Part shown: piece by piece, positions 5,302-41,667 of the stretch
Numbering within the stretch: the first letter of the stretch is position 1
Layout of the letters: the number at the start of each line of letters is the position of its first letter
NCBI GenBank assembly: GCA_000697335.1
Contig: JNEM01013760.1
Span: forward strand, 1-59,596
Reading direction: 5' to 3'
Origin: Conidiobolus incongruus B7586
Lineage: Eukaryota
Length of the DNA: 59,596 nucleotides
The notes under the pieces: model-generated
Databases searched by the model: none
What the model saw: only the letters and a program-made list of their open reading frames with translations
What the model was told of the DNA's origin: nothing
Position numbers and translations under genes: made by a program

Positions 5302-6696
5302 ATGACCAATCTATTTAAAACAGTCTGGAAATACATTCGCAAGGTCAAATTAACTGCATGGATCTTTATCTTTATGATCATAGGTTTGATCATCGGTCTG
5401 ACTGATCCCACTGACTTCAGTCGCACTCAATTGCGCCATATTTCTACGATGTTCATCAGCATGGTCAAGTGTCTTATTGTGCCTCTTATCTTTTCTACAC
5501 TCGTCGTCGGTATTGCTGGACATGGTGATGACATCAAGCGGTTAGGAATGTTGGCACTGAAGAGTATTATTTACTTCGAAGTTGCTACAACGGTTGCTCT
5601 CATCATTGGTATGATTGCTGTTAACGTCATTAAGCCAGGTAAAGGAATTGATTTGTCAGGTATTGTTGTTAGCGATACCATTAAGGAGTCTATGAAGAAC
5701 TCTGATCACATAACATGGCATGATATCATTACCCACGTCGTTCCTGCTAGTTTCTTTAAAGCTTCGTCAGAAAATGAAGTTCTTCAAGTTGTATTCTGTG
5801 CTGTCATGTTTGCTGTTGCTTTGATGTTAGTTGATAGAAAATTCAAGCCTCCTATGCTCACCTTCCTCGAATCTCTTTCGATGATCATGTTCAAAGTTAC
5901 TGAACTTGTTATGAACTTCGCTCCGATCGGTATTATGTGTGCTTTAGCCGCTACTGTTAATGCTGCTGGCTCTGCTGTTTTGATCAACTTAGCTGCTTTG
6001 ATCGGTACTTTATACGTTTCATTGATCATTTATGCAATTTTAGTCTTCGTTCCAGTATTATTAATATGCCGCGTGCCACTATTAAGAGCATGCAAAGTCA
6101 TCGGTCAGCCAGCTTTAATTGCTTTCTCTACTGCTTCTTCCGAAGCTGCTCTTCCTAAGGCTATGGAATTGATTGAAAGATTCGGGGTTCCCAAAGGTAC
6201 TGTTTCATTCGTTATGCCCACAGGTTATTCTTTTAACTTGGATGGTACTACTCTTTACTTGGCTCTTGCCTCCGTTTTCTGTGCTCAAGCTGGTGGAATT
6301 GATATGTCCATCGGAAAACAAATTGTAATGATGTTGACTCTTATGTTAACCAGCAAAGGCGTTGCTGCTGTTCCTCGTGCTTCTTTAGTCATTTTAGCTG
6401 GTACTGTAACTACTTTCAAACTCCCTGCTACAGCCATTGAAGTTATTCTTGGTGTTGATGCTTTAATGGATATGGGACGTACTGCTATTAATTTGACTGG
6501 TAACTGTGTTGCTTGTATCGCTATGTCTGTCTGGGAAGGTAACTTTGATTACGATATTGCCTATGGTCGTAAGGAATGGACTGATACAGCTATTGATGAT
6601 GGCTTTGATGTTGATATTGAAGCTAACTATAATAGAGAAAAGGGAGTTCAAGTCGAGCCCAGTCAGCCTGTTTCCAGTGAAATTCCCCGTCATTAA
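5302..6696 (+). CDS. Dicarboxylate/amino acid:cation symporter (DAACS family), bacterial GltP/DctA-like
   Basis: 464-aa intronless multi-pass membrane ORF with family motifs FSTASSEAALP (HP1), GYSFNLDGT (TM7), SKGVAAVPRASLV (HP2) and DMGRTAINLTGN (TM8). TATAAAA lies at ~5242. Confidence 0.95.
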   Translation: MTNLFKTVWKYIRKVKLTAWIFIFMIIGLIIGLTDPTDFSRTQLRHISTMFISMVKCLIVPLIFSTLVVGIAGHGDDIKRLGMLALKSIIYFEVATTVALIIGMIAVNVIKPGKGIDLSGIVVSDTIKESMKNSDHITWHDIITHVVPASFFKASSENEVLQVVFCAVMFAVALMLVDRKFKPPMLTFLESLSMIMFKVTELVMNFAPIGIMCALAATVNAAGSAVLINLAALIGTLYVSLIIYAILVFVPVLLICRVPLLRACKVIGQPALIAFSTASSEAALPKAMELIERFGVPKGTVSFVMPTGYSFNLDGTTLYLALASVFCAQAGGIDMSIGKQIVMMLTLMLTSKGVAAVPRASLVILAGTVTTFKLPATAIEVILGVDALMDMGRTAINLTGNCVACIAMSVWEGNFDYDIAYGRKEWTDTAIDDGFDVDIEANYNREKGVQVEPSQPVSSEIPRH

Positions 6697-6949: not shown

Positions 6950-8850
6950 ATCCTTATTATAATGTATAATATATTTATTCCATATTATGCATGTATTCGA
7001 ATTAATATTTCTACATATTTATGGTTTGATACATATAGCAAGTAAATTCCACAAAATGATTGAAATGATCGATATTTTCAAATAGTCACTTGTTTACACA
7101 AATAATGAGCAATTTTGATATTTACAAAACATCTTTATACTATACACGATATAATGAGTATAGAAATTTTTCAAAGTTATATATAGTTTATAAAAATTAG
7201 ATAAGCCAATCTTGTATTGTCTATTATGTAATCAGCTACCCCAATTGGTACCTCAGCAATTGTTTAGTTATAATATATTAAATAATTTTTTCTTGTTTAC
7301 TTTTATCAAACATTGAACACTGATAATATCAATATAGATTAGAATTTACATTACCCCACAATAACCTTCAAAATTATCCATTACACATTAACAAAATTGC
7401 CAAATTAAAGTGAATAAATCCAAATCTTCTAATATTTGATGGAGTATAATTCACCATTTGAATTTTTTTAAAAATTGAAAATTTAATAAAATTATTTACT
7501 TTTTATTACTGACAGCCCAGAGTACTATTTATACTCAATAAGTATTTTATTATAATTGACAATGTTAAAAATATACTTTTATCAAATTATTAAATTAAAT
7601 GTTTAATATTATAATATTAATTTTATAAAATAAGGTTAAGCTAAATATACTGTTTTTTGATAATAAACTGATGAAAAATTTTTAAAATTAAATTTTTAAT
7701 AATTTCAAATAATAAAATAATAAAATAATTAATAGTCAAGATTATATATTTTAATAATAGTATAATAAGTTTGATATCAAATAATAAAAATTCTAGAATT
7801 AGTTTATTTAAATGACCAATATAAAATTATCATATTTGAGAGAGTAGTTTGATACTGTTAATACTCAAATATAAAATTAGTTTGATAATGATAATATAAC
7901 AGTATTTGGATATAAACTAAGAAATTAAGATTAACCTAATTAAAACATTTTTGTCAAATTATAGGAATATTGATTCAATTATAAAAAGTATATGTCAAAT
8001 ATAATTCTGGATCTAATTAAATATTTCATAATTGGTGTCTATTATAAAATTTTTTACTTGAAATTATATATTAAAAAAATTAATTACTAAAATTGATCCA
8101 ATAGCTTTTGGAATTATTTCAAATAAATTTAAATTGAATGATTCATATTTATAAGTAATTATCAAAATATTGTAAAAGAATGTTTTGTAGATGATTTAAA
8201 CATCATATATTAATTTCTGGTTAATTTGATTAATAATCCGAATAATTGAAATATAAATATTCTTAGTCCAGGTTAATATTACTCATGGATTTGCTTAACA
8301 TTGATTATAATCTAATAAAATTATTGTTTAATGTTTGGAACTTCAAATATAATTATTTAAAACAATTGATTAATCATTCCAATATTATTACTAATCAATA
8401 GTATAATGTGTGAGTACTAAAATTTAACGGTTTAATTGATATAATATTCATTAAAATATTCCTATATATCATTCCCTAACTGATGATACCTTGACTAAAG
8501 CTATCGCTATTGAAAAAATTTCGGTTTTCATTTTAATATTGAATATTTCTTTAATTAAAACTATGGTGTCTACCACTAATATATACTCTAAATATACATC
8601 AAATATCAATATGTTATATATTATATATTTCAACATTTCAATGAGTCATTATATTTTTGTGAAATTTAAGTAATTTATTATTGGACCTTCAAATTTCTTA
8701 TAATATAGCACATTTGATAGGATTACACATATTGAAAAAAAAATCTTGCATTCTATTAATTATATACCTTTGTTTCCTGAATAGAGATTTTATCAGATAC
8801 TCTTCATTACATATATTTGGACAAAACAATTATTAAGTAAGCTGAAAAAT
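6950..8850 (-). pseudogene. Possible heavily eroded family-B DNA polymerase relic
   Basis: Collinear motif-like remnants on the minus strand: NEEYLI (8808-8791), YIINRM (8766-8749), LNF-(1-nt gap)-SLYPN (7929-7904; motif A LDFxSLYP), RRFGFIHFNLAILLMCNG (7430-7377; motif B region) and ICRNINS (7018-6998), which reverts to ICGDTDS by transitions only. Many stops and frameshifts. Confidence 0.4.
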
Positions 8851-10611
8851 ATATTATATTAGCATTGAACTTAATAATATTTATATTCATTTCAATATTT
8901 TAAATTAAAAATTTTGCCAAATATCTTATATAATATTTTATATTCTTAACCATTATAATAAAATTAATTTTTAATACTTTAATTTATATTCAGATCTTAT
9001 AAATATATAACATTGTGAATTTTGGTATTGTTTATTTTTTCAATAATTTGGAGCAGGTTTAATATAATATTGTTTTACTATTAACTTGATATAATGGAAT
9101 TTATAGTAAAATATCAAATATATTAACTTTAATATTATAAAATTCTGTTTTTATTTATAATAAAATCAATATTATTATGAAATTTGAATATTAACAATAT
9201 ATCAAACTTGCAATAAATATATATAGAATTTTAAAATTTATATGAGTTAATATTTTAATTATAAAAATAAAATATCTATTTATATTTCCCAATTTGAATA
9301 TATTGACTTGATATTGATCAATTTGTGATACTAAGTTGGATATTATCTTATTTTGAACAAGATCAAATTATTATATAAAATTGATATTCTTTGATTTAGT
9401 GATAATATATAATACTAATAACGATAATTTAATTTTTTGATTTTATATGTAATTTAAAATTATTCAATCATAAATAATATTATTCTTTTAATTCTTTGTT
9501 TTAATTTATTTGATTAAGTTGAATTCAAAAATGTTATAATATTATAAGTAAATCTTAAATAGAATTTCTGAAATATAAAATTAAATAATATATAAAAAAT
9601 TTGGAAATTATAAATATAATGTTATACTTAGTTGAAATAACTGTAATTGAATATATTTATTATTTTATAGATCCATTTGTTTTATTCTTTTATAATATTA
9701 TAATTATAATATTAAGCTTTTAATTTTAATTATTATATTTTTAATTATAGCTTCTCATATCTATGTTATGAATAATTAAATTAAAAATATGAAAAAAGTA
9801 ATATAATTTTAAATTATTTTAATAATTTAAATAAAAAAATATAATGGCATAATGCTATTAAATTATCATCTTATAAAAAGTATGATTAATATCTAAATAT
9901 TTTCAATACTATAAAATAAATCAATATGAACTTTATATAATTAGAACAAAGATGATGGAAATTGAATAACATAAATAACTCTCATTAATTAAATATTTGA
10001 AAATTGAATTTAATTCAACTTTTAAAAAATTTCAATATTTAAATATATTATGCTAATATTGAAATATAAGAGCAAGTTATAAAATTATTAGCTTATTTAA
10101 TAATTGAACTGAAATATGATTGAATAATTAACTATATTAAATTATATAGGAGTTTTATTATATACTCTAATAGATATAACTATCTCATCTATTCAACCAA
10201 ATGAAAATTCAAAAAATTTGATTTATAAGATAGTTTATATCCATTTATTTTTAAATTGATTTAATCTAATAACCCTACTAAAAATAAGCATATATATTCT
10301 AATATTTTATCATATATATCTTTATTGATATCTTGCATAACCTTTATACTCAATTATTTTATTTTAATATGATTAATAATTATTTTCAATTAAAAATTTT
10401 ATATTGAATAAATACATTATTTATATTGATTTAATTATCATAATTATATTAATATTAATTAATATAATTCAAAATAAATTAATTATAATATTAGTAAATT
10501 AATGAATTTCAACTATTATATTATCAATACTAATTGATTATCATTATTAATTATTATATCAATTAAATTATAAATTTATAAAGATTATATCTATTAGGTT
10601 ATTTAATATAT

Positions 10612-33489: not shown

Positions 33490-35500
33490 ATGACATATTT
33501 TAATAAATTTTATCTACCAAAACTCCATATAAATACCTCAATCAATTTGTCAATGCGCTGGTATTTTATATAATTAATTTAATATTTTAATATGATTTTT
33601 GGATGTAATGGTATTTACTAAACATATTATTTAATTTCCATATTATTCATATGATATTAGAATGAAAATAAATTGAATGAAAGCATTCAAATAGATAATA
33701 AATGGATAAAGTATTATTTAAAACAACCTTACGAGTTCAATTTATTGGAAGAATTATTATCTATTAATAGCAAAAACATTAATCATAACAACATTATTTT
33801 ATTCAAAGAATATAAGCTCAAAGTTACAAGGTAAATCGATATTAATAATTATCATTGAACATTAAAACCAAGGATTCTCTCATTAATCCTGATAATTTCC
33901 AGCAATTTTATTTCAATTTACCCCATTTATATTCATTAAATTCTTACTATGGAAAGAATTAAATTTAATCAATCATCCTAGTCAAAAGAAATGAATGTTC
34001 ATGTAAAAAGTACATATATAGTAGAATTAGATATTGATTTTAATCAATTGATTCAGTTGGTAATCGATATATTCCATTATCATTATATTCATTAATTATA
34101 TTTTTTAGATTATCATATATTCTATGATTCAACAAAAAATTGAAAATAAATCAATTACCCAAATTGAGCAATCTAACAATTTAATTCCATTACAATTTCC
34201 TATTTTTCAAAATTTAGGTAAATCTTTAATCCATTATACTTATAGTTATAAACATAGCATTTTGATTTACAGCAAATCAATTAAACTTTCGTCTTAATCA
34301 ATTCAACGTTACATTGAAGGATTATGAATCAAAACATATTTATTATTATTATTATTATTCTAATCAATTTAAGTTCATAAAATTAGTATAAAATGTTTAT
34401 ATTTTTATATGTTTATAATATATCTTGGTTTAGTATATACATGATCTTATTCGGTATCATATTTGATGATTTAATCGGCTACTGTTTAAATAATCATAAA
34501 GATTATCTCATTCGATTGATTATTCATTTTGTCAATGAATATATGCTGAAACTACCTCAAGAGATTGTGAATTGGCTTAGGGAATATCCCGTGAAACCGA
34601 TATTGAATAGTAAATTGGTACATTTCTTAAGTGAGTTATTCTCTTGGCTTACTATTAACTGGAATAGTAATTTTTTGACATATTTTAGTAATTTGGTGGT
34701 TAAATAATGATTGTTAAATCTTATTTTTAAATTCTTTAAAGCCTTATTGCTACGATTTAATCAAAGCTATTGGTCTATTTGGATTTTTTGGTCTGAGTCT
34801 TCGATTGAGCTAATCGTATGCTATCCTATCAATCAGTTTATTATACATCTTTTGATTCTATCTAGTCCCTAGAAAAATTACTTATTGGCTTTGAACTATT
34901 TTCAACTCTCTTTATATTACCTATTCCTATGTATTATCTTATAATAATATAGCTTTATTTGATATTTATAAATTTAAAAGGTAAAATGTGGAACCAGTTA
35001 AGACAGAGAGTTGATTTGTTTGATTATCATTTAGATCATAATATTAATGGTTCTATTTTATTCAACTTCTTAACCTTTTTATTCCCTTTAATTTTCATTT
35101 ATTTAACTAATTTCACTATGGTAATTGATAATTTATTTCAACTATGATATATATATATATATTCAATTTATTTGATAAATTTAGAGCTAGATATTAGTTT
35201 TCTGGATTCAGGGTATTTTTAAATTATTCATTAATCTCTTAAATTTTTTACCAATAGGGAGTTATTTTTCAAGATTTATTCTTCCTCAAAGATTTTATGG
35301 TAATTTTATCTTAATTATTTTATAATATCAATTTAATTAAAGTATAAAATTTTGTTTGATAAATATAATTAGGTTAAGTTATCAAATAGACCAAATGAAT
35401 CAAATTAATACTGTCTATTTAATAAAGGTAATTTGTAAGTTTTAATTGATTTATAATATTAATTTATGTTGTAATAGTCGAATTTTTGTAAATATTCCAA
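33490..35500 (+). pseudogene. GPI1: GPI1/PIG-Q (GPI-GlcNAc transferase subunit) pseudogene; 3' end approximate
   Basis: NWLREYPVKPILNSKLVHFLSELFSW resembles WL..WPAGLKLN..L..FL.ELF.W, and GKMWNQLRQRVDLFDYHLD...GSILF resembles GKK.NVLR.RIDS.DYDLDQLLLGTILF. The intervening homologous exon has in-frame stops at 34811 (TAA), 34853 (TGA) and 34892 (TGA). Confidence 0.75.
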
Positions 35501-35635
35501 GTTTAATCAAAATTTAGTTTATATTTCGAGTAATTTCATTCATAATTATTTTAACATAATTATTGCTAAAAAATATGTTAATTGAGATCTAATAAATAAT
35601 ATATAAAAATAAACAATATATTTTTTGGTCAAAAG

Positions 35636-35708
35636 TACTCCCAATAGGGATTGACCTGTGAACTTGGCGTTATTAACACCACGCTCTAACCAACTGAGCT
35701 ATGGGGGC
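35636..35708 (-). tRNA. tRNA-Ile(AAT), degenerate and probably a pseudogene
   Basis: Minus strand reads GCCCCCATAGCTCAGTTGGTTAGAGCGTGGTGTTAATAACGCCAAGTTCACAGGTCAATCCCTATTGGGAGTA. D arm/A box and anticodon arm (AAT) are intact. The T-loop/B box is damaged (GGTCAATC instead of GGTTCGATC) and the acceptor stem has a C:A mismatch. A TTTT tract follows. Confidence 0.85.
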
Positions 35709-35718
35709 ATCTGCATCT

Positions 35719-36252
35719 TGTCACGGCTATTAGCTCTTCGAGTGTCATCGTGGACACTGACACAGCCATTGTGTAGACCAAGTTGTGAAGCATGGCACCT
35801 ACCAGCTGGGGTAAACTACCGATGATTAGTTCCCTGGCTATCCGGCCGTGATAATTTGTAAACGGGGCGTTGAAAAGAGTGACTGAACCAGTGGCAGCAG
35901 TGGTGGTGTGAGCATCCGGCATACTAAGGGGACGGAATAACAAAATTTCAATGGGAACGAATGTAGAGTAAATAATGGAAGATGACTTAAGTGGCGCTAT
36001 AGGCGGCTACTTGAGTATACTAAGTGGATGGCTTTTGGAAGCAGGGAAAAAGGTTTAGTTGTAAAAAGAAGACAGAAAGTCCTCCTTAGAATTTAGTGAA
36101 AAAAGTGTTGGCATAAGTATGATACGACTGAGAATAGTGAGATCACTCGGATGTGGGGCTGGTAAAATATTAATATGATCTAATTTAATTAATCAGGGAC
36201 TTGGTAGTGATTTTGGGTGATAAATGGTATCAATCAGGCAACAATTGCTACA
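35719..36252. mobile_element. Solo LTR (534 bp) with 5-bp target-site duplication
   Basis: Begins TGTCACGG at 35719 and ends TGCTACA at 36252. Flanked by CATCT on both sides (35714-35718 and 36253-36257). Much more GC-rich than its flanks. Confidence 0.85.
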
Positions 36253-36616
36253 CATCTTCAATGAATAAGGATACATTAGTAGGCATCATTTACAATAATT
36301 CTATTTTTTCTGTTGAATTATTCATTATCCTGATTGTTTATATCTTTTTCTCTCACTTATTAATATTTATATTAGCCTCAAATTTGAATAATATTTAAAT
36401 TTCATATATTACTTACTCAATTTCATAACTTTTTATTTTTTCATTATATTTTATTAAATATTTTTATACAATAAGCTTGATCGAAATATCTTTTCTGAAA
36501 ACTATCAAAATTAATAATATATAGATCAAAACATCAATTAATTGGATTTTATTATACAAGGAAATAATATATATAAACTTCAAAAATATTTTGACAAAAA
36601 CCATTGTATGGGTTAG

Positions 36617-37959
36617 TTATATTCCGACAGCATGTAATTCAGATGGCGTTGGTGGCAGCACAACATCCACAATATCCCAAGGATCATCTTCGCCTTTGGA
36701 GCTATCCTCATCAGGGTTAAAATAGTCATCTAAAAGGAATTTGTCCATCGTGAGACTAGAGCTAGCTTGATGACCTTTGAATTGTTTGGTGACTAACTCG
36801 AGTAATTCCTTGAATTCAAGTTTGAAATTGGCATCTAGTTGATAACTCAGTTGAGTGATACCAATATTAGTCTGCTGGACTCTGTGTTGGCACATTTTGA
36901 ATAGTTGCTGGAGGTGATTTGGCCAATTTAAGTAATCTTGCGATGTGAGAATGATTGATTGAGTGAAACAGAGATATGCTAGGTTATAAAAACTAATAGC
37001 TAGCAGTAATGGATGATGATCTTGGTTTTGATCCAGCAGAAATAATGGGATTTCGGAGATATTTTGAAAATGGATAAAGTCGTGCTCAAGATAAGGAACT
37101 GATCCTCGATATACAACTGAGAATGGTAGAAGTTTTCCAAGATATTGAGATGCTAAGTTGACCACATGTATAAGATGCAATACACCTCCGCTAAATTGAG
37201 CTAAAATTATGTAAATAAAGAATACATTCAATGGGTAATATAGTGTCACTTACAGTAAAATTTAAAGTAGGGTGACTCGGTTTGGGAAATTTCCATAAAA
37301 CTCTCCTGCGTCGTATTGGAAGTTTTCTTATTTTTGTGATTTTCTTTTGAAATTTTTAACTTTTCAAGCTGTTGAGTCACAGGAGTGTCCATAGGATTGA
37401 AATGAACCATAGATCGAAGTTGATATACTAGACCTTTTCTAGTGTATCCTGTCCTAACTTGTGTATCTCTGTCAAGTTCCTTTGACTTGTTCAAAAACGC
37501 TTCTTGTCCCATTTTAGACTGCTCAATCAAACTATTTAATTTCGTTTTTAAATTTTCTATCCTAAGTCGTCTCTCTTGATTCTGCCTCTTTAATTCCATA
37601 TTTTTCGACTTGGCTAATATACAAGTATATAATTAAGATATGGAATATTTAGATAATAAATCAAAGTACCTTCAGTAATTTTTTTAGGTAGCTCAGTTTC
37701 TAATAATCTGAGTTGACCAATTTGCTCTCTTAAATAATTCACTTTGAACTGATTTAATTTTTTATTATAATGAGTCTGAATCATTTCTTTCATATTCGGA
37801 AAATATATTTCTATGTTATTTTTTAAATTTGTATAATCAAATAAACTATATTATATAATTAGTATATTAATATTAACATTAGTATCATTTATACCTCTCT
37901 GATATGCAAGCATTACAGAAAAATTTATTTTTATTTTGAAGACAAATGGTACACTCCAT
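36617..37959 (-). CDS. ATG14: Atg14/UVRAG-family PI3K complex subunit, about 4 exons
   Basis: N-terminal MECTIC...FCNAC (CxxC...CxxC), a coiled coil, GGVLHLIHVVNLASQYLGKLLPF, PLFL...YNLAYLCFTQ and an acidic C-terminal WDIV motif. Confidence 0.75.
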
Positions 37960-39688: not shown

Positions 39689-40728
39689 AGTGCTGTCTAA
39701 TAAATGAAGAATTTAACTATTTGATTATAATTATAATTTTAGTTTATTATAAACTGATTGAGTGAGTTGCATTTTTTCTGGTTTAGTAGGCTTGGATTCG
39801 AGTGGTGGTAAATTGAAGGGCTGCTGAATTTCTAATTGTTGAAGGATTCAATCAGATTGTATAAAATCAACTAGGTGCTTATTTTTCATCCTTAAGTAAC
39901 TATATGCTCCATCCATTATTATATTGTCACCTTTTCTTAAAATCACTGCTTTTACCGTAAGTTTATTAGAAATTTTGATATTTATATTAATTATGGGTTC
40001 GTTTTGATAATTATTGGGTTAGTGTAAGTGTAAAATCAATAATATTAAAAAAGGATTAAAGCAATATCTGCATTATTTGTTTTTTAAATTTATATATATA
40101 TATATATATATATATGTTTTAAAGATCTTTTTCTTATTTTTCAGATATTTAGTCTAAAGATATTGTTTAAAATTTTAATCAATATATATACCAAAATATG
40201 CTTTCAATAAATTTTTTGATTGAAATATTATAAAAAAATAATTTTTATTATATTGGAGCGCATTTTGATGCTTAAATTGTTGTATTAATTATTTAACTAT
40301 AATTGTTTATATCAATTTGAAATATATTGCAATGTCTTTTATTTTATAGTAAAATATTTTGTCAAATAAGTAAAAAGAATCAACCAATCAATTCCTCGAA
40401 TTAATAAACCACTGAAAAATATTGGATCATTTATAAATCAAAATAATTTGAATTCAACGTCTTGAGATTTAGTAAAGTCTACTTTGGTCGTCATTGTTGA
40501 CTTCAGGTGACGAAACGTCAAGTTGATATTTCTCATTGTCTGAGGTAAAATACTTTTCTCTTGCTCAGCTGATTCAAGACTCTTTTTATATTTTAATATA
40601 GTTCTATTTTTCATCTATGGTTTCGACTATAGCATATCAATTCACAAAATGCTTAGTTTCTTTTTAAATTTATGATTGTTCTAAAGCTGTGCTTGATTAC
40701 TTGTCTAATATATTTTTATAGCGTAATA

Positions 40729-41667
40729 ATGAATAATCAAAATTTACAACCGGGAGAAGGAAAGAATTTTTCTCAGCCACCAAATGCTGAGCTGAATGCT
40801 GCACAAAACAGATTTATACAAACGGCGCCTATAAATTACCAAATGTTACCAAATCCTATTCCTGCTGAAAATGCTCAAAGTTCAGTCCCACTTCCTGTTC
40901 CTACAAATCATGATGCTCGCTTGGCTGGTGTTCCTCCCTTGCCTTTGCCTCAGCTACAGCAAATTGACAGTTCTAACTCACAGTCGCCTGTTAGTGGAAT
41001 TGTCACTCCAAATGCAGAAAACAGTTCTGCTCAGAATCCGGCCAATGGAGCCAACCCAATCTCTATCCCCCCTCCTCAGTCCAGTTTGGCCCCTACTCCC
41101 CTATTACCATCTACAGAAGCAGCTCAAATTCAATCTCAATCTAATTTAGTTCCACCTAATCCCACTCCTACCCCTACTCCACCTATTCTTGCAAGTCAGC
41201 ATCCTATAGCACCAGTTACTATAGCACCTCATTTGAAAAAAGATAACCTTCCTACTCATGGATCGACACATATGACAGCAACTAAACGTTCCAGCAATGT
41301 AACCCACGACAATCCAAGTAAAGCTGCAGCTCGTTTGCAATATTTGGAATATATGCATTCTGTGATGTCTTCAGTTATCCAATTGGATCCTGATCTTCCA
41401 CCTCGTACCAATGTAAAAGATGACTCAGTACGTCTTATTCAACGCCATTTTCCTGATACAAATCCACCAAGTCGTCCTAATCCCAGAAGGACTTCAATGA
41501 GAAGGTGCCGTGTTTGTTATGCTCGGGGGATCCGTAAGGAAACAAAATATTGCTGTAATGAATGTCCCTCTCAACCCGGGCTCTGTGCGGCTCCTTGTTT
41601 TAGGATATGGCATACATTATTAGAGTTACCAAAAAAGGTTAACTCGCCAGAACCATTGCCTGAATAA
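40729..41667 (+). CDS. Pro/Gln-rich protein ending in a piggyBac-transposase-type cysteine-rich zinc finger (no catalytic domain)
   Basis: The C-terminus RLIQRHFP...RRCRVCYARGIRKETKYCCNECPSQPGLCAAPCFRIWHT matches the piggyBac/PGBD4 C-terminal CRD pattern. The N-terminal ~200 aa are low complexity. The start is probably 40729 because a TTTTATAG acceptor ends at 40721; the ORF track starts at 40672. Confidence 0.8.
   Translation: MNNQNLQPGEGKNFSQPPNAELNAAQNRFIQTAPINYQMLPNPIPAENAQSSVPLPVPTNHDARLAGVPPLPLPQLQQIDSSNSQSPVSGIVTPNAENSSAQNPANGANPISIPPPQSSLAPTPLLPSTEAAQIQSQSNLVPPNPTPTPTPPILASQHPIAPVTIAPHLKKDNLPTHGSTHMTATKRSSNVTHDNPSKAAARLQYLEYMHSVMSSVIQLDPDLPPRTNVKDDSVRLIQRHFPDTNPPSRPNPRRTSMRRCRVCYARGIRKETKYCCNECPSQPGLCAAPCFRIWHTLLELPKKVNSPEPLPE

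Follow-up and report, generated by a model that had tools for sequence, protein, structure and literature searches.

A repeat with the ends of a long terminal repeat (LTR) lies 10 nt (35709-35718) from the 5′ end of a tRNA-Ile gene in the stretch of fungal DNA analyzed here (59,596 nt, referred to as the window), and this position raises the question of whether the repeat was guided there by components of RNA polymerase III (Pol III) transcription or arrived by chance. The window is AT-rich (26% GC across its length) and gene-dense. The best named relatives of a transporter encoded at 5302-6696 come from Conidiobolus coronatus (84%) and Neoconidiobolus thromboides (64%), with further named relatives in Massospora, Entomophthora, and Basidiobolus. 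Judged by these relatives, the host resembles a Conidiobolus-type entomophthoralean fungus. The repeat and the tRNA gene sit between Gpi1 exons (34387-35147) and a minus-strand ORF ending at 36617, for which no Pfam family was found. The best explanation of the locus, held with slightly more belief than doubt, is an old solo LTR whose position reflects Pol III targeting that is either partial or works in two orientations.

Table 1. Elements of the repeat-tRNA junction, in window positions.
Feature	Position	Strand	Remarks
tRNA-Ile(AAT), decayed	35636-35708	-	Rfam tRNA 46.4 bits (gathering 29), E 9.3e-08
T4 run, Pol III terminator-like, one base past tRNA 3′ end	35631-35634	-	sequence; function inferred
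Host spacer, 5 nt (-5 to -1), from duplication to mature tRNA 5′ end	35709-35713	-	part of GCATCT tandem
Left target-site duplication CATCT	35714-35718	+	tRNA positions -10 to -6
Repeat copy, likely solo LTR	35719-36252, 534 bp	not assigned	TGTCAC...GCTACA ends, sharp left edge
Right target-site duplication CATCT	36253-36257	+	repeat depth ends within bin 36237-36260

The first-pass annotation of this DNA had described a 534-bp TG...CA element with an exact CATCT duplication, the 10-nt gap to a minus-strand tRNA-Ile(AAT), and a tandem duplication of GCATCT at 35707-35718. The coordinates and letters of the element and its duplication were confirmed, the gap was verified by sequence and by Rfam, and the exact tandem is present in the letters, where it extends across the left duplication and into the first two bases of the tRNA. 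Hexamers containing all four letters are tandemly repeated at 4 of the ~59,600 window positions, GCATCT included, and this one may be accidental or may record an earlier event at this site. The element has a GC content of 43%, compared with 17% in the 500 bp left of the tRNA and 18% in the 300 bp to the right. The window holds 814 TG...CA pairs, spaced 100-2000 bp, that have a 5-bp duplication; 47 of them are TGT...ACA, so that such ends with a 5-bp duplication mean little by themselves. Among the 47 the element ranks first in GC content, and no other pair among the 814 has its start within 50 bp of the 5′ end of the tRNA. No coding remnant was seen in its 534 bp, and no second copy or internal repeat was found within the window. 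The motifs TATAWA and AATAAA are absent on both strands of the element, AATAA occurs twice on the plus strand, ATTAAA once on the minus strand, and TATA twice on each.

The identity and position of the tRNA-Ile(AAT) also stood, and its degeneracy, which had gone unmentioned, has to be added to the description. One base is missing from the T-loop/box B (by the Rfam alignment, in the assembled sequence rather than raw reads), C-A mismatches occur at 3:70 in the acceptor stem and at 50:64 in the T stem, and ARAGORN does not call a tRNA at this position. The box A region agrees with the Rfam model. On these features the gene is likely a pseudogene now. It has no encoded CCA, and the T4 run points to a gene that was genomic from the start, not to a retro-copy. 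A search of 1-35600 and 35709-59596 with Rfam returned no further family at gathering score. One other candidate, a tRNA-Phe(AAA) called by ARAGORN at 8850-8936 (minus strand) in very AT-rich DNA, was set aside as probably false, being without Rfam support.

Evidence that the element is a repeat comes from sequencing contigs. The region was found in four runs of one sample, and the contigs of two of these (X1 and X3) were aligned to 35709-36420 at 80% likeness; both runs derive from the same sample, possibly the source of the window, and are not mutually independent. The alignment yielded 206 contigs from X1 and 215 from X3, which rules out a single-copy segment, an outcome that the first-pass annotation had named as refuting its proposal. 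Most of these contigs are less than 90% alike to the window (125 of 206 and 133 of 215, respectively), with transitions dominating the differences, and this copy differs from most of its relatives by ~10-20%. At the left edge the other contigs cease to match sharply at 35718/35719. At least 25 contigs in X1 leave the element on this side (8 at 35718, 10 at 35719, and 7 at 35728, the last a variant terminus in which TGTC are still the first letters), and their flanks are mutually unlike, with an agreement of ~0.5. On the right side, position 36216 is covered by 9 other contigs and depth is 0 after bin 36237-36260. Given the repeat edges, the chance of finding CA and CATCT inside this 24-nt bin is ~1e-3. 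Left and right repeat edges agree with the CATCT duplication, and the edges are therefore fixed by independent evidence.

Coverage of the left part of the element is far above that of the right part. As judged by eye, 11-12 contigs continue at 36023 in window-like sequence, so this rightward fall looks like divergence rather than truncation. Some contigs are lost to the contig filter, among them the two junction contigs of this locus, as judged from the finding that neither 35751 nor 36216 shows the window letter in any contig. Depth summed over contigs (up to 11,128, compared with 39.6 for the locus's own X1 contig) was not taken as copy number, and a family of 25-130 copies was used as an assumed range. 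Two runs under another organism label (X5 and X7) gave 0 aligned contigs and hence no empty-site allele, which is not proof of absence there. Searches with short motifs of the element gave 0 matches in viral contigs for a 19-nt motif and 0 in viral and prokaryote contigs for a 23-nt motif; a single metagenome contig containing the 19-nt motif was dismissed as chance, its GC content being 63% and its match extending over only 20 bp.

The repeat thus combines TG...CA termini, a 5-bp duplication at its true edges, and dispersed copies with unrelated flanks. Its length, ends, and duplication are typical of LTRs, and a solo LTR is the best fit for it among the readings considered. The earlier identification as a solo LTR holds as regards multiple copies, LTR-like ends, and the duplication, and goes beyond the evidence as regards descent from a coding retrotransposon. 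A 5′-truncated SINE or LINE was rejected on the absent A-tail and the fixed TG...CA ends.

Several known LTR elements occupy comparable positions, and the 10-nt distance lies inside the span of ~5-33 bp upstream of mature tRNA 5′ ends used by targeted elements. The closest in geometry include Tj1 of Schizosaccharomyces japonicus, a Ty3/gypsy element that makes a 5-bp duplication and inserts on the upstream side of tRNAs, 5-11 bp from their mature 5′ ends (PMC4600332). Tj1 differs in that 13 of 17 inserts are at tRNA genes, all in one orientation, whereas a strict orientation is rejected for the contigs here, and in its LTR of 244 bp compared with 534 bp; the comparison is one of features. The DGLT-A elements of dictyostelids, also Ty3/gypsy, are found as solo LTRs at 10-19 bp in front of tRNA genes, with DGLT-A.3 and DGLT-A.5 of D. 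purpureum at 10-11 and 10-19 bp, respectively (PMC5006619). LTRs of this family measure 163-601 bp and insert in either orientation in D. discoideum, and some DGLT-As of P. pallidum have lost targeting (PMC5006619, PMC5911963). Their host is an amoeba, and their targeting was recognized from several copies at a similar distance, in contrast to the one copy here. Ty3 of Saccharomyces cerevisiae, with its sigma LTR, integrates at the Pol III start region by the mechanism proposed here (PMC8632968), yet it lies ~15 bp from the mature 5′ end (PMC5006619), slightly beyond the 10 nt at this locus, and it requires intact boxes A and B, whereas box B is broken here. The beta LTR and Tca8 of Candida albicans resemble the present case in that LTRs and partial elements lie 6-30 bp from mature tRNAs, on the upstream side (PMC5911963), but they belong to an ascomycete yeast and their association with tRNAs is documented family-wide, compared with one copy here.

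Whether the family as a whole targets tRNA genes was approached through the flanks of its other copies. For the 8-contig and 10-contig groups, a consensus was formed from the 30 letters beyond the left edge, at this one end of the element and from 12 of 138 loose-end rows; the group of 7 was excluded from simulation because 9 of its 30 letters belong to the element terminus. Both consensus flanks are AT-rich, with 1 G/C letter in the distal 20 + 20 positions (agreement 0.50 and 0.48). They were compared with simulations combining a generic tRNA model devised for this analysis with window backgrounds. In simulation, at most 1 G/C letter appeared with a probability of 0.86 or 0.20 when none of the flanks faced a tRNA, 0.18 or 0.012 when 30% did, 0.022 or 0.002 at 50%, and at most 0.003 at 60%; at 80-100%, 0 of 3000 simulated runs per setting reproduced the consensus, for contigs passing the filter. 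A joint test of G/C content and agreement fitted best at 0-20% tRNA-facing flanks (P at most 0.24 at 0% and 0.003-0.03 at 50%). For one element end and filtered contigs, 10-30% tRNA-facing flanks remain compatible with the simulation.

On this evidence a fixed, Tj1-like orientation to tRNA genes is rejected for the contigs seen, strict 50:50 targeting in two orientations is disfavored, and partial or orientation-biased targeting would fit the flanks about as well as none. The lengths of the flanks also bear on what adjoins the element. The median loose length is 255 in the three X1 groups, perhaps an upper limit, and 255 and 165 in the X3 groups listed; most left flanks are, to judge from the contigs, long and unique and meet no repeat. 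Two of the three distinct left-junction contigs listed end after ~35 and ~60 flank letters, a hint in the other direction, as short flanks would occur if repeated sequence, such as a tRNA gene, adjoined. The proposal of a tRNA-targeting LTR family consequently fares unevenly: the multiple copies, LTR-like ends, 5-bp duplication, and a distance within published ranges agree with it, the AT-rich flanks, most of which do not seem to lead into a tRNA, speak against its strict form, and one decayed copy leaves targeting by the family unproven.

The likelihood of a chance encounter can be gauged from a relative. C. coronatus has 1,294 predicted tRNAs in 44.21 Mb (PMC12387763), a high count of which many might be decayed or repeat-linked copies, and its repeat matches include 3,777 Gypsy, 33 Copia, 2 unclassified LTR, and 3,021 MITE. 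With these numbers a random insertion would fall in a 10-20 bp window at a tRNA gene in 0.03-0.06% of cases, or 0.06-0.12% if half of the genome tolerates insertions, and a family of 25-130 assumed copies would have at least one chance tRNA neighbor with a probability of 0.015-0.14. Given thousands of repeat matches in C. coronatus, a few chance tRNA neighbors per genome are therefore expected, and scanning a genome would bring them to attention. Because the flanks fit partial targeting and no targeting about equally, the per-copy odds decide between them. These were set at ~0.001 for an untargeted element and 0.2-0.45 for a partly or two-way targeted one. They were weighed with a prior, by judgment, that puts tRNA targeting in 3-15% of the LTR families of such compact genomes, and with some margin for open chromatin near tRNA genes, where insertions of any kind may be enriched. 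The weighing favors targeting at roughly even odds to four to one, with priors that are a matter of judgment.

The main competitor, which may be entertained tentatively, is an untargeted solo LTR with a preference for AT-rich or open intergenic DNA that came by chance to lie beside a tRNA gene or pseudogene. The AT-rich, heterogeneous, and mostly long flanks at the left end are what such an element would show, the joint simulation is best fitted by a low share of tRNA-facing flanks, the related genome abounds in both targets and repeats, and the locus was selected for study because of its tRNA adjacency. Set against this are the probability per insertion of such a position, only ~0.1%, and the coincidence of the position with that used by known targeted elements, while the flank test itself covers one end, a small share of the loose-end rows, and filtered contigs.

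Two further readings concern the nature of the repeat and of the tRNA. A non-autonomous, MITE-like DNA transposon, or another TG...CA repeat with a 5-bp duplication, targeted or not, would account for the fact that a full-length element, a PBS, and a PPT were not seen and that canonical TATAWA and AATAAA are lacking, and MITE matches are plentiful in C. coronatus; it is nonetheless improbable. MITEs carry terminal inverted repeats. The ends of this element share only TGT, a match of 3 bp and hence no real terminal inverted repeat, where ~10 bp or longer would be expected of a MITE; its dimensions and duplication are those of LTRs, and the rightward fall in depth resembles divergence, not truncation. 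Very improbable is a tRNA that traveled as a passenger of the element, whether as a retro-copy, by primer read-through, or within a composite repeat, instead of serving as its target. The similar degree of decay in tRNA and element and the unusually high tRNA count of C. coronatus would suit a passenger, but the CATCT duplication encloses the element alone, the 5′ end of the tRNA faces the element whereas primer read-through would give the 3′ end, and CCA is absent with a T4 run following the 3′ end. A reading of the tRNA as primer read-through or as a PBS was rejected on this geometry.

Placement of an old solo LTR by Pol III targeting remains the preferred reading. It is somewhat likely that a Conidiobolus-type fungus harbors a family of LTR retrotransposons whose insertions go to the Pol III start region of tRNA genes, be it for only part of the copies or in either orientation. 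The family is putatively Ty3/gypsy, an assignment taken from the repeat table of the relative only, since LTR matches in C. coronatus are almost all Gypsy. What is directly observed is a TG...CA repeat whose 5-bp duplication occupies -10 to -6 relative to a tRNA gene that is now damaged. Before that, a full-length element would have integrated beside the tRNA-Ile gene with a 5-bp staggered cut while box B still worked, its integrase presumably guided by Pol III factors as that of Ty3 is by TFIIIB. LTR-LTR recombination reduces an element to a solo LTR, and such recombination between the two LTRs would have left the one seen here. LTR and tRNA would then have decayed neutrally, a loss of the tRNA-Ile that a genome rich in spare tRNA genes would tolerate.

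The precedents invoked for this mechanism in the first-pass annotation are borne out by the literature: integration of Ty3 at Pol III start sites through TFIIIB by PMC8632968, and insertion of DGLT-A upstream of tRNA genes by PMC5006619 and PMC5911963. [quoted passage not shown] Targeting by Ty3 needs boxes A and B intact and is abolished by a broken box B (PMC5911963); as box B of the tRNA-Ile is broken now, the order of events given above must be assumed. If targeting holds, the element would work like Tj1, DGLT-A, or Tca8.

Such a case would place a known mechanism in a new fungal lineage, Entomophthoromycotina (Zoopagomycota), and would extend tRNA targeting from ascomycete yeasts and dictyostelids to early-diverging terrestrial fungi. 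Table 1 of PMC5911963 lists tRNA-targeted LTR elements for ascomycete yeasts and dictyostelids only, and no report of such elements in Zoopagomycota or Mucoromycota was found among titles and abstract beginnings of mainly open literature, Repbase excluded. The accessible parts of PMC11105155 describe Ty3 expansion in Entomophthorales and do not discuss tRNA neighbors, and those of PMC8826637 contain nothing on tRNA-adjacent elements. If the reading is true, an integrase would become available for testing shared origin against convergence, and an entomophthoromycotinan case would bear on whether TFIIIB docking is an old trait of Ty3/gypsy elements or arose repeatedly in compact genomes.

Other parts of the window yielded observations of their own. 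The transporter gene at 5302-6696 (plus strand) is an uninterrupted sodium:dicarboxylate symporter ORF (PF00375). Among the 120 matches listed, the named ones that follow those from Zoopagomycota and Calcarisporiella are nearly all bacterial, at ~55-60% identity, and include Longimicrobium, Gemmatimonadaceae, Gemmatimonas, and Sphingomonas, which hints at an old bacterium-to-fungus transfer. Four window proteins had no exact-sequence match in the protein cluster collection searched. A low-complexity ORF of 331 aa at 40672-41667 (plus strand) ends in a DDE_Tnp_1-like zinc finger (PF13842, E 8e-09); no transposase domain was detected in it, and it is possibly a domesticated transposase piece. 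The RNase H encoded at 53190-53924 (plus strand) has an RNase H1 N-terminal domain and looks like a host enzyme rather than a retroelement remnant. Farther along, a tandem pair of diverged TMEM33/Pom33 paralogues occupies 54263-54805 and 56025-56528 on the minus strand, ~1.77 kb apart.
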